From: a virus | Lineage: Duplodnaviria; Heunggongvirae; Uroviricota; Caudoviricetes | IMG/VR virus record: IMGVR_UViG_2695420597_000002 | Length of the DNA: 25,190 bases | Direction: 5' to 3' (one strand) | Part shown: positions 1 through 3,000 of the stretch, in pieces | Layout: each line of letters starts with the position of its first letter | Position numbering within the stretch: position 1 is the stretch's first letter | Made by a program: the position numbers

Positions 1-3000
1 CAGCTGATAGAAACAGAAGCCACTGGAGCACCTCAAAAACACCATCATACACTAAATCAGTAAGTTGGCAGCATCACCAGCCTTCTTGAGGCTACCACCT
101 GTTTTCAGGTGTCATTCAGACGTGATTTGCCCCAGATTGGGAAAGCACGCTTTTTTCTCAGCTATCGTCCTCTTATTTTGCCGTTACATTTCTTTTTGCA
201 TTCTAATGATTAATTTACAATAATAATATCGGTAATTATTGAGTAATAATAAATTAATTATTGCAAATGTAATTTAATTCCATCTTCGCGTTATATTCCA
301 ATCTTTAATCTCCGCATGGAACAAGTTGCATGCGTGACTATATTAAGACGACTTATAACCACCAAAACATTTGCTTTGCAAGCAAAAACAGTGACCATTG
401 ACTCTAAGAAAATTCCGATCTATTGTTAGGGTCATCAAAGTTACTTAACAGTATTCCGAAATGAAAATACAAAGCAAGCTAATTGTCTTATTAAACATTA
501 TTATTGCATTTATATTATTTGAGCTTTTAGCTCAAAAATTTGGTTTGAGTACATTATTTTAAAGCAAGATAAACAATATCGGGCACTCTAGTTTTTATAA
601 TTAACAATTAAACGTCCATAAAATGTTATTTACTTTTCTTCGCTATTGTCATATCTTAATATAGTGGCTTACGCCACTCTACTTTCATCACATTTTGTAC
701 GTTTATGTACTCGCCATGAAGCTCTTTCATGGCGATTTTTTATTCTTAATCCAAGAACATACTCCCTACCTATAGCAAAATCACTTTTTTAACAAAAGAA
801 TAACGTATTTAGGTAATCATTACGAATTTACCCTATAGGTGCTACTGGCCATTCAATATCCGGTGCAGTTGATGTATCAACACGGTTCAGCAACACCCGA
901 TACTTTTTCCAAGCTTCCAGCAACAAGGTTTCTTTCTCCGTTGCGATCTCCAGATCCACAGCATCCTGAAGCGGCGCTATATGCTCACTGGCTACCTGCA
1001 TCAGGCTGTTTTTTGTTTCTTCCGCCTCCCGGATCCGGAACAGTTTTTCTGCTTCCGTATCCTTCACCCAGGCTGTGCCGTTCCACTTCTGAAACTCCCC
1101 TTCCGGGGATAACCAGGTGACATTTTCCGGTAATGAGCCGAGTTCAGAAATAAATAACGCGTCGCCGGAAGCCACGTCATAAACCGTTTTACCCCGATGA
1201 TCTTCAACGAGATGCCACGATGACTCATCACTGTTGAAAACAGCCACGAAACCAGCCGGAATATCTGGCGGTGCAATATCGGTACTGTTTGCAGGCAGAC
1301 CTGTATGAGGCGGAATATATGCGTCACCTTCACCAATAAATTCATTAGTTCCGGCCAGCAGGTTATAAATTTTTATGGTCCGTGCTTGTTCACTCATTCT
1401 GAATGCCATTATGCGAGCCTCACAATATAGTTAAATGCGATGTTTTTGACGGTGTTTTCCGCGTTACCAGCAGCGTTAACGGTGATGGTGTGTCCATGTG
1501 AACCAATCGCAACAGAGTGCGTATGAGCACCAATACCGACAGTATGCGCGTGTGCACCCGCAGATGCTGCTGTGCCGGACAGTGAGTGTGTATGGTTTCC
1601 TTCTGAAGATGATTTACCTACCCATTGGGAGGTGCCACTGGTTAATGAGCCACTGATACCAACCTGATTAGTCCCGCTAACTTGAGTACTCCCTGCCGGA
1701 AACATTCCAGTAGGTTGACTCCCGCTATTCGTTCTGGGCCCAGTCTGACTATGTTGGTGGGCCCCAGCTGAACTTGTAGAGCCGCTCAGACTGTGCGTAT
1801 GCGCCCCGGTGTTATTCGTGGATTTAGTGCCGTAATCAAACGACGATGTGGTTTTCGTCCCCAAATCCGTACTGGATGCGCTGGCGCTGTGGGTGTGCGA
1901 TTTAATGCCATCCTGTTCCTGAGACAATACGGCACGACCACTGGCGGGCTTGCCCTTAATCGTCCAGCCACGCATATCAGGGATCACGCCTGACGGATAA
2001 GCGGCTGCAAGTTTCGGGTAAGCAGATTTGTCAAAAGTCTGCCCCTGCATCAGGGCATAACCAGACGGAACGGTATCTGATGGCCACGGGATTGGTGCAC
2101 CGACTGGATAAAACTCTGCAGGAGGATGAGCCGAGGTGTAAAGCTGCGCCCACGGCGACCAGTTTGCGTCGGTCGTATCCCGTCGTGAACGAATAAATGC
2201 CGGAGCATGAGCACCGCTTGTACCACTCCAGCCGATGAGTAACTCACCTTCGCCAACGGCTGTCATCCCTTTCAGGTGAATGATATTTCCATACGCTGTT
2301 GGATATCCGTTGTTATACACCTCGTATAACTCAAGACCTGCTGCCCCCTGCGTATTGTCTGTCAGCGCGGCTACCCGACCTTTTGAAGCCAGATTAACTG
2401 ATGATACTGCTGTTCCACCTGACGGTAGCGCCCCGATCTCTGATGCCGTTGGCTTATTTCTGGAGTTATAGTCCCTTCGCCAGCCAGGTGAATAATCTGT
2501 TCCGTGATTAATATAGGTAAACTGGGCGTTGGTTGTTCCGCCACCGCTGGATGTGGTCGGAGTGGTAATGCGGATCGTCATCGCTGACTTTATCCCCATT
2601 ACTTCAATGACAGCTCCGGCGAGATGAATATTACCGCAGCCAGTATCAGTAATGATTTTATTATTGCCATAAGACCAGGAACCCTTGCACATCCAGTATG
2701 GATGGTTAAATGCTCCCTGAGAATCCAGCCACTCGATAAACTGTGCAGTCGTCCAGTTTCCTGTTGTTGTGCTTACTGACCCACCGAAGGCACGGCAGGC
2801 ACCAATATTTTTCGTAAAGGTGTCTTTGCCAGGGATATCCGCACCGTTCTGATCTTTCTGCAGACGTTTCTCAGCATTGTCATTGGCTGCTTTTACTGCC
2901 TTTGGCGTTGCCGCCAGCGTTTCAGACGTGCTGTTGGTCGCGCTGCTTAGCTGGATTATCCCTTTCTGTGCTGTCGTTGCATCCTGTGCGGTGTATTTCC

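Follow-up and report, generated by a model that had tools for sequence, protein, structure and literature searches.

A yncL-related candidate cargo gene beside the tail fiber assembly gene of lambda-like Escherichia coli prophages

Downstream of the tail fiber assembly gene tfa of a lambda-like Escherichia coli prophage (IMG/VR virus record IMGVR_UViG_2695420597_000002, Caudoviricetes; the whole stretch of 25,190 nucleotides is hereinafter called the window), between tfa and an IS1 element, lies an AT-rich island of 750 bp (positions 79-828) that lacks long open reading frames (ORFs). Does this island carry a gene, an RNA locus, or only the remains of a decayed operon? The GC content is 0.27-0.335 across positions 101-800 (200-nt windows) compared with 0.45-0.65 in tfa and the side tail fiber gene stf, and there are no ORFs of at least 60 codons in 79-827, the largest being of 52 amino acids (aa; 65-223, starting within IS1) and then 48 aa. 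Both the composition and the ORF list agree with an earlier reading of this DNA from the sequence alone (the sequence-only reading), which had described an AT-rich stretch without ORFs of 60 codons or more and had proposed, as its principal interpretation, a small membrane peptide gene with its own signals. That interpretation is borne out by purifying selection and by a specific similarity to the stress response protein YncL: with a probability of roughly 0.75, positions 398-741 constitute a cargo gene (moron) that is complete and autonomous, is carried by a lambda-like E. coli prophage and encodes a membrane peptide distantly homologous to YncL. The layout of the island is by itself suggestive rather than compelling; the decisive evidence comes from the comparison with relatives.

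A 33-codon gene under purifying selection

The ORF at 461-562 (plus strand, stop codon included) encodes the predicted peptide MKIQSKLIVLLNIIIAFILFELLAQKFGLSTLF, which contains one hydropathy core (best 17-residue window 2.94, residues 7-23), in line with the single-helix hydrophobic peptide of 33 codons recognized in the sequence-only reading. The ORF was compared across 82 loci drawn from genomes, IMG/VR viral contigs and metagenomes, in which it is 33 codons long and is represented by 7 DNA alleles and 4 protein variants. The sequences fall into four classes, namely that of the window, a class found at the Qin site (~96.5% identical to the window), a class adjacent to sitABCD (the sit class, ~93%) and a divergent class (~80%).

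Between the window and the divergent class, the ORF differs by 18 nucleotide changes and 5 amino acid changes (synonymous divergence, dS, 1.03; nonsynonymous divergence, dN, 0.094; dN/dS 0.09), compared with 9-15 amino acid changes, along with stop codons, in the other five reading frames; when the same substitutions were placed at random, none of 20,000 placements changed as few amino acids with the frame kept open. The sit class differs from the window in the ORF by 6 nucleotides, with 5 synonymous changes and a single amino acid change, and between classes the dN/dS values are 0.04-0.09. The variable sites in 43 haplotypes are distributed 13/8/2 over codon positions 3, 1 and 2. In the divergent class, a 5-nt deletion occurs directly 3' of the ORF; a TAA stop codon is recreated in frame, and the length of 33 codons is kept. 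The conservation of the small ORF, an issue raised but left open in the sequence-only reading, is thus apparent both from the constant length in the 82 loci and from the purifying selection. Judging from these substitution patterns, ORF 461-562 is a real protein-coding gene under strong purifying selection, and the codon-level signature refutes the option, entertained in the sequence-only reading, of a small RNA (sRNA) in place of a coding gene.

The same evidence bears on the possibility that the ORF arose by chance in AT-rich junk, the island being a decayed remnant of the b region truncated by IS1 in which only the terminator hairpin matters, as an insulator or 3' stabilizer for tfa. AT-rich DNA readily gives rise to ORFs rich in Ile, Leu and Phe, such that about 1.7 ATG-started ORFs of at least 33 codons are expected in the stretch, and the ORF is not preceded by a Shine-Dalgarno sequence; moreover, the promoter-like site described below is not significant on its own. 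This explanation is contradicted by the codon-level selection and by the specific match to YncL with its shuffled controls, and an ORF as hydrophobic as 461-562 arises in only 2.2% of composition-matched simulations. Together with the relationship of the unit to IS1 (see below), these observations render a chance origin highly improbable.

Other ORFs in and around the island were considered and rejected. In the other three classes, the start codon of the 37-aa ORF 316-429, which is annotated in phage PhiR70_1, reads ACG instead of ATG; a 55-aa ORF that carries an annotation in phage ev099 is split by IS1 in the window, and in the O157 copy, its start is lost and its frame shifted; in the divergent class, the 48-aa ORF 646-792 is interrupted by the loss of 1 nt at 736; and in the 24-aa minus-strand ORF 656-730, all 3 differences from the divergent class are nonsynonymous.

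Similarity to the stress response protein YncL

A search of the peptide against NCBIfam yielded a sole match, NF000537, "stress response membrane protein YncL" (E = 1.3e-5, 25 bits). The four natural variants match this family alone (22.5-27.1 bits, E = 3e-6 to 7.5e-5; K-12 YncL scores 68.6 bits), and four shuffled control peptides produced no NCBIfam match. In the BLASTP alignment with K-12 YncL (MNVSSRTVVLINFFAAVGLFTLISMRFGWFI, taken from the K-12 genome record), which is ungapped from residue 1, there are 11 identities in 28 positions (39%) and 18 of 28 positives; the score of this alignment was reached by none of 3000 shuffles, including those that preserved the order of the N-terminus, the hydrophobic core and the C-terminus. 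No family for the peptide was found in Pfam, PHROGs or PADLOC, and two scans of species-representative genomes, one with a DNA pattern and one with peptide patterns, gave no matches.

The peptide and YncL (E. coli K-12 b4598) are of 33 and 31 aa, respectively, each with a single hydrophobic helix (residues 7-23), and are collinear over residues 1-28, with 10 invariant columns (M1, S5, L10, N12, A16, L19, F20, L22, F27 and G28); both are encoded by a tiny stand-alone transcript, predicted in the case of the prophage gene. In contrast, the C-termini differ (GLSTLF in the peptide, GWFI in YncL), as do the genomic locations, yncL being a chromosomal gene between patD and ortT whereas the present gene is prophage-borne and adjacent to tfa. 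Furthermore, yncL is preceded by the ribosome-binding site AAGGTGG, whereas the prophage gene lacks a Shine-Dalgarno sequence and possesses a long conserved 3' untranslated region (UTR). From these sequence comparisons, we conclude that the peptide is a distant homolog of YncL, not an ortholog.

Two other small-protein loci are instructive for comparison. The transcript of the Salmonella yncL ortholog, a sigma-S-dependent gene, was originally cataloged as the sRNA STnc1110 (PMC5437024); like the unit described here, STnc1110 is a short, terminator-ended, sRNA-looking transcript that encodes a YncL-type peptide (PMC5437024), but it is chromosomal, sigma-S dependent, equipped with a ribosome-binding site and devoid of nucleotide similarity to the unit. 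YohP belongs to the same class of stress-induced small membrane proteins of E. coli and, as reported for YncL, causes sublethal depolarization, a phage-shock response and nucleoid condensation (PMC12542507); with no sequence similarity to the peptide detected, it provides a functional analogy only.

Transcription signals of the unit

A sigma-70 promoter is predicted at 398-426 on the plus strand (-35 hexamer TTGACT at 398-403, a 17-nt spacer, -10 hexamer TATTGT at 421-426; promoter scan of the window and of the homologous loci L001 and L007), which would place the transcription start near 433 and imply a short, AU-rich leader. The site matches the consensus in 9 of 12 positions, so the sequence-only reading was correct about its location and overstated its quality as near-consensus. 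The scan of 1.5 kb detected 6 sites of the 9/12 grade compared with 4.1 +/- 2.0 in shuffles, and the site at 398-426 alone is not significant. Such sites are about equally common in shuffles, and the promoter call draws on conservation: identity to the window across the site is 100% for the Qin-site class, 93% for the sit class and 90% for the divergent class, in which (locus L007) a promoter is detected at the same position as TTGACT-17-TATCGT.

At the opposite end of the unit, an intrinsic terminator (711-741, plus strand), facing tfa, consists of an 11-pair stem (711-735), a CUC loop and a U6 tail (TTTTTT in the DNA), and is found in all classes, with a G721A change that converts a G-U pair to A-U; the strong plus-strand terminator proposed in the sequence-only reading is hence confirmed. 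As read from the sequence, the terminator should work on the plus strand only because the minus strand lacks a T run. With respect to independent transcription, the terminator is clear and conserved, and the promoter is a prediction kept in three of the four classes and weaker in the sit class.

Upstream of the promoter, a conserved island at 285-362 shows 83-90% identity to the divergent class, compared with ~57% for the next 35 nt (363-397). This upstream island always accompanies the peptide gene, with which it shares 828 genomes, and is retained in L013, a locus without the gene; it could be a regulator binding site.

In the sitABCD-linked class (L008, 3765-4456), the interval from the stop codon of sitD to the peptide gene's terminator contains no other predicted terminator, and the promoter of the gene is weakened. 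In this class, the peptide gene may be co-transcribed with the sit operon, with one terminator serving both.

Distribution and modular inheritance

The segment 280-770 is present in 829 of the 5426 complete E. coli genomes (~15%), with no annotated feature beneath the match. The upstream island and the 3' block of the unit (655-741, discussed below) were found in the same 827-829 genomes as the ORF, and neither was found apart from the ORF in the complete E. coli genomes. The entire stretch 79-828 (750 bp) is 99.6% identical in E. coli prophages integrated beside bioA-ybhB and 98.5-99.2% identical in the sequenced, cultivable phages mEp332, ev099 and PhiR70_1, all of which carry the unit.

Nucleotide identity between the window and the divergent class rises and falls along the unit: 90% in the upstream island (310-354), about 57% in the spacer 370-399, 90% in the promoter (398-426), 80-83% in the ORF, about 57% at 580-609, 90-97% in the 3' block (655-744) and about 57% at 760-789.

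On its right, the unit (about 285-745) is invariably bordered by the 3' end of tfa; on its left, four different neighbors occur: a region encoding an AraC-family regulator; the prophage-chromosome junction at ydfJ (Qin site); sitABCD; and sitD or an efflux gene with a tfa fragment. In the Qin-site prophage L013, a segment corresponding to approximately 381-808 is absent (three-way alignment of the window, L006 and L013), with the junction in a TTT microhomology; the gap opens immediately ahead of the -35 hexamer, closes ~65 nt beyond the terminator and so brackets the promoter, the ORF and the terminator. Thus, the unit is present or absent among related phages, occurs next to varied neighbors, and has a composition unlike that of the flanking phage genes (27-33% GC compared with 45-65%).

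These are features of the morons of lambdoid phages, such as lom and bor of phage lambda and the morons of HK97 and HK022. As with these, we observe a small unit with its own promoter (predicted here) and terminator, located beside the tail genes of the late operon, with an odd composition and a patchy presence. Unlike them, the unit follows the last late gene and is opposed to it, whereas morons are inserted between late genes in the same direction, and the product is only 33 aa long.

The sequence-only reading had further suggested that the island could be a remnant of a b-region operon cut off by IS1, and this suggestion does not survive the comparison. IS1 and the -35 hexamer are 320 bp apart, with IS1 on the upstream side, inside another module and pointing away from the island. 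Positions 79-163 are the right-hand part of a separate module of ~220 bp that is split by IS1 and is not part of the peptide gene: they match alone, at 93-100% identity in the records listed, in genomes that otherwise have no match to the island, other prophage ends among them, and alignment with the O157 locus L009 and with L001 shows that the module extends to the left of the IS1 site, with the IS1-free L001 being continuous across it. The unit itself is complete and identical in relatives and phages without IS1 and also occurs beside tfa with other neighbors. Since the unit keeps tfa with four left-hand neighbors and L013 lacks the whole promoter-terminator stretch, it appears to be a complete cargo gene rather than a remnant cut by IS1.

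A second, truncated 3' end of tfa, in the same orientation, is found to the left of the unit in the Qin-site and divergent classes (L007, 3892-3991; L011, 2862-2961; L006, ~3905-4000). In these loci, the unit lies between direct repeats of tfa sequence, an arrangement that we consider a trace of tail fiber cassette exchange.

The conserved 3' block

The most conserved segment of the unit is not the ORF but the 3' block at 655-741. On the plus strand, this block encompasses a predicted conserved hairpin at 663-678 (AGUGGCUUACGCCACU, hairpin 1 of the 3' UTR), a near-invariant single strand, CUCUACUUUCAUCAYAUUUU, that is followed by hairpin 2 (697-710), together spanning 679-710, and the terminator. 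In the sit class, a C-to-U change in hairpin 1 creates a G-U pair with the stem kept, and the divergent class alters only the loop. Positions 679-710 show 93-97% identity to the divergent class (30-nt windows), the top values in the whole unit, and a variable-site density of 0.18 compared with 0.42-0.51 in the spacers; the region 640-745 folds at z = -5.2 relative to shuffles.

The block consists of a U-tailed terminator preceded by a conserved single strand and a hairpin, and so resembles the 3' end of an Hfq-type sRNA. This layout raises the possibility that the main product of the unit is an RNA, with the block (~663-741) acting as an Hfq- or ProQ-type sRNA that is processed from the 3' UTR of the mRNA, or transcribed from a weak internal promoter, and regulates host or phage mRNAs, the peptide being the secondary product of a dual-function RNA. 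The levels of identity (90-97% at 655-741, 80% in the ORF, ~57% in the spacers), the lowest variable-site density and the folding z-score are all consistent with this scenario; the invariant single strand of 30 nt is needless for a terminator alone, and the precedent of Salmonella yncL, first cataloged as an sRNA (PMC5437024), points in the same direction. Conversely, the dN/dS values of 0.04-0.09 demonstrate selection on the peptide, so RNA cannot be the sole product; no Rfam family was detected in 79-828 at E <= 1, the only match nearby being IS009 inside tfa; the promoter scan found no 9/12 site upstream of 663; no target was identified; and the block could equally be an mRNA stabilizer or act on the minus-strand late transcript. 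On balance, an RNA as the main product appears unlikely. Possible roles of the 3' block are those of an sRNA derived from the 3' UTR, a stabilizer of the mRNA or an element that acts on the minus-strand late transcript, and 655-741 may thus have an added RNA function besides the peptide.

A more elaborate variant is a dual-function cargo in which a YncL-like depolarizing peptide would be combined with the 3' block (663-741) released as a trans-acting sRNA, reprogramming the physiology of the lysogen or excluding superinfecting phages via a lowered membrane potential. We regard this as a doubtful proposition; if true, such an element would have escaped notice until now despite its presence in cultivable lambdoid phages and in ~15% of E. 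coli genomes.

Two candidate long-range structures were rejected. The inverted repeat 324-348/654-678, with a perfect 11-bp core, shows no compensation in the divergent class and on that ground is judged to be a chance occurrence in AT-rich DNA, and the centroid fold lends no support to a hok-style structure in which the 3' end folds back on the leader.

Comparison with type I toxin-antitoxin systems

Small hydrophobic membrane peptides, often encoded on mobile elements, are also characteristic of type I toxins (Hok, TisB, ZorO, ShoB, Ibs, Ldr), and the size and hydrophobicity of the peptide are typical of this group. The locus could accordingly be a type I toxin-antitoxin module in which a membrane toxin is held in check by an antisense or divergent RNA and which serves in prophage stabilization or abortive infection. 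The harm caused by YncL when it is produced early (PMC12542507) is compatible with such a role, and an antisense RNA spanning the ORF could originate from a 9/12 minus-strand promoter at 652->623. However, the -35 hexamer of this promoter falls within the least conserved stretch and is not retained in the divergent class, and no minus-strand terminator was found anywhere in 1-1500. There is also no direct repeat linking the upstream region to the mRNA leader, as needed for an RNA of the Orz, IstR or OhsC type, and the leader is short and without a sequestered Shine-Dalgarno sequence, rather than long and structured. These scans revealed no antisense or adjacent RNA complementary to the putative toxin mRNA, and the peptide matched neither a toxin family nor a PADLOC model. 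A type I module is therefore improbable. The label "toxin-like" in the sequence-only reading remains plausible by analogy only, given that overproduction of YncL depolarizes the membrane (PMC12542507); an antitoxin RNA to go with it was not found.

Proposed model and implications

Returning to the interpretation as an autonomous cargo gene, we propose the following tentative model. Transcription from the moderate sigma-70 promoter at 398-426 would yield a plus-strand mRNA of ~310 nt, extending from near 433 to 741 and consisting of the leader without a Shine-Dalgarno sequence, the 33-codon ORF and the structured, highly conserved 3' UTR that ends in the terminator at 711-741, where transcription would be halted before an antisense run into tfa. 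Because the orientation of the gene opposes late transcription and its promoter is separate, the arrangement suggests expression from the resident prophage, as in other lambdoid cargo genes. The predicted product is a single-pass inner-membrane peptide, a distant homolog of the host stress protein YncL.

YncL levels go up in minimal medium and upon heat shock, and YncL production causes sublethal membrane depolarization, a phage-shock response, lowered protein synthesis and nucleoid condensation (PMC12542507); the protein is also an in vivo substrate of the protease RseP (PMC10470546). By analogy, the peptide made from the resident prophage might partly dissipate the membrane potential and push the lysogen toward a low-metabolism, stress-tolerant state, in which case the phage copy could serve to tune both the membrane potential of the lysogen and its metabolic state.

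Several observations weigh against the cargo gene interpretation. The promoter is only of the 9/12 grade and, in the sit class, is weakened to TTAACT (8/12) and missed by the scan. A Shine-Dalgarno sequence for the ORF was found in none of the four classes, the duplex with the anti-Shine-Dalgarno sequence being of -0.4 kcal/mol compared with -7.2 for K-12 yncL, and the strongest conservation is in the 3' UTR rather than in the ORF. The available diversity comprises only four sequence classes, and one metagenome contig (L081, 262-264) has ATA instead of the ATG start, reflecting either a pseudogene or a sequencing error. The scores of the peptide variants against NF000537 (22.5-27.1 bits) fall below the curated cut-off of 35 bits, so the peptide is not a YncL equivalog; the NCBI annotation pipeline would therefore not name it, which fits its absence from RefSeq. 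A phmmer search with the single peptide against 1.8 billion representative proteins recovered only the peptide itself and a frameshifted copy, and a full-text literature search for the peptide, its DNA, the carrier phages, and morons or small proteins produced no transcript or protein data.

The finding is incremental in the sense that this type of gene and this type of locus were both known before. Nevertheless, it exposes an annotation gap: the gene is missing from RefSeq at every locus examined, despite its occurrence in about 15% of the complete E. coli genomes and in at least 3 sequenced lambdoid phage isolates. It also indicates that the host family of small stress proteins typified by YncL, the cellular role of which is only now being worked out, with membrane depolarization and metabolic silencing described so far, has a mobile, phage-borne relative. 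Should the phage copy act like YncL, temperate phages would carry a ready-made modulator of dormancy or membrane potential as lysogenic-conversion cargo. Phages mEp332 and PhiR70_1 grow on E. coli K-12 and E. coli C, which makes the gene directly testable.

Genomic setting and neighboring features

On the left, the island is bordered by the terminal 78 bp of IS1 (1-78, minus strand), the transposase of which points away from the island; where other genomes share this junction, an IS1A-family transposase is annotated. On the right, tfa (828-1409, minus strand) is convergent with the peptide gene and is the constant right-hand neighbor, as indicated by the ORF list and by the RefSeq annotation at every homologous locus. 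It is followed by the side tail fiber gene of 1029 aa (1409-4498, minus strand), with further lambda-like tail genes beyond. In the IS1-free relatives, a 1.5-kb gap separates tfa from the next annotated gene, a minus-strand gene for an AraC-family regulator, beyond which IS remnants and int-xis are located; because the order in these relatives is tfa, the 1.5-kb gap, the AraC-family regulator and int-xis, the island stands where the b region lies in phage lambda.

The AraC-family regulator (L001, 4501-5244; L004, 2501-3244), which matched no PADLOC model, represents further cargo between the island and int-xis in IS1-free prophages and phages. About 110 bp to the left of the IS1 site, L001 (5828-5890) contains a fragment that looks like the 3' half of a tRNA-Ser gene, with partial Rfam matches to tRNA-like and tmRNA models and no gene called by ARAGORN; this is probably a relic attachment site left by another integrating element, and the AraC-regulator region would therefore be a separate acquisition.

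The ~220-bp module that is interrupted by IS1 in the window (L001, 5868-6085; L009, about 2870-3086) is conserved, widely dispersed and non-coding, and contains a perfect 6-bp hairpin, CACCTG-TTTT-CAGGTG; the 55-aa ORF of ev099 mentioned above overlies it and lacks conservation. One copy of this module is located in an O157:H7 prophage, between uspF and genes for NleG-type (DUF1076) effectors.

Positions 868-1066 of the minus strand, within tfa, match the Rfam family IS009 (RF02111, an sRNA gene according to its listing) with 218 bits. The match lies wholly within the coding sequence, and in this case, the IS009 "family" seems to represent the coding DNA of tfa and not an RNA of its own.

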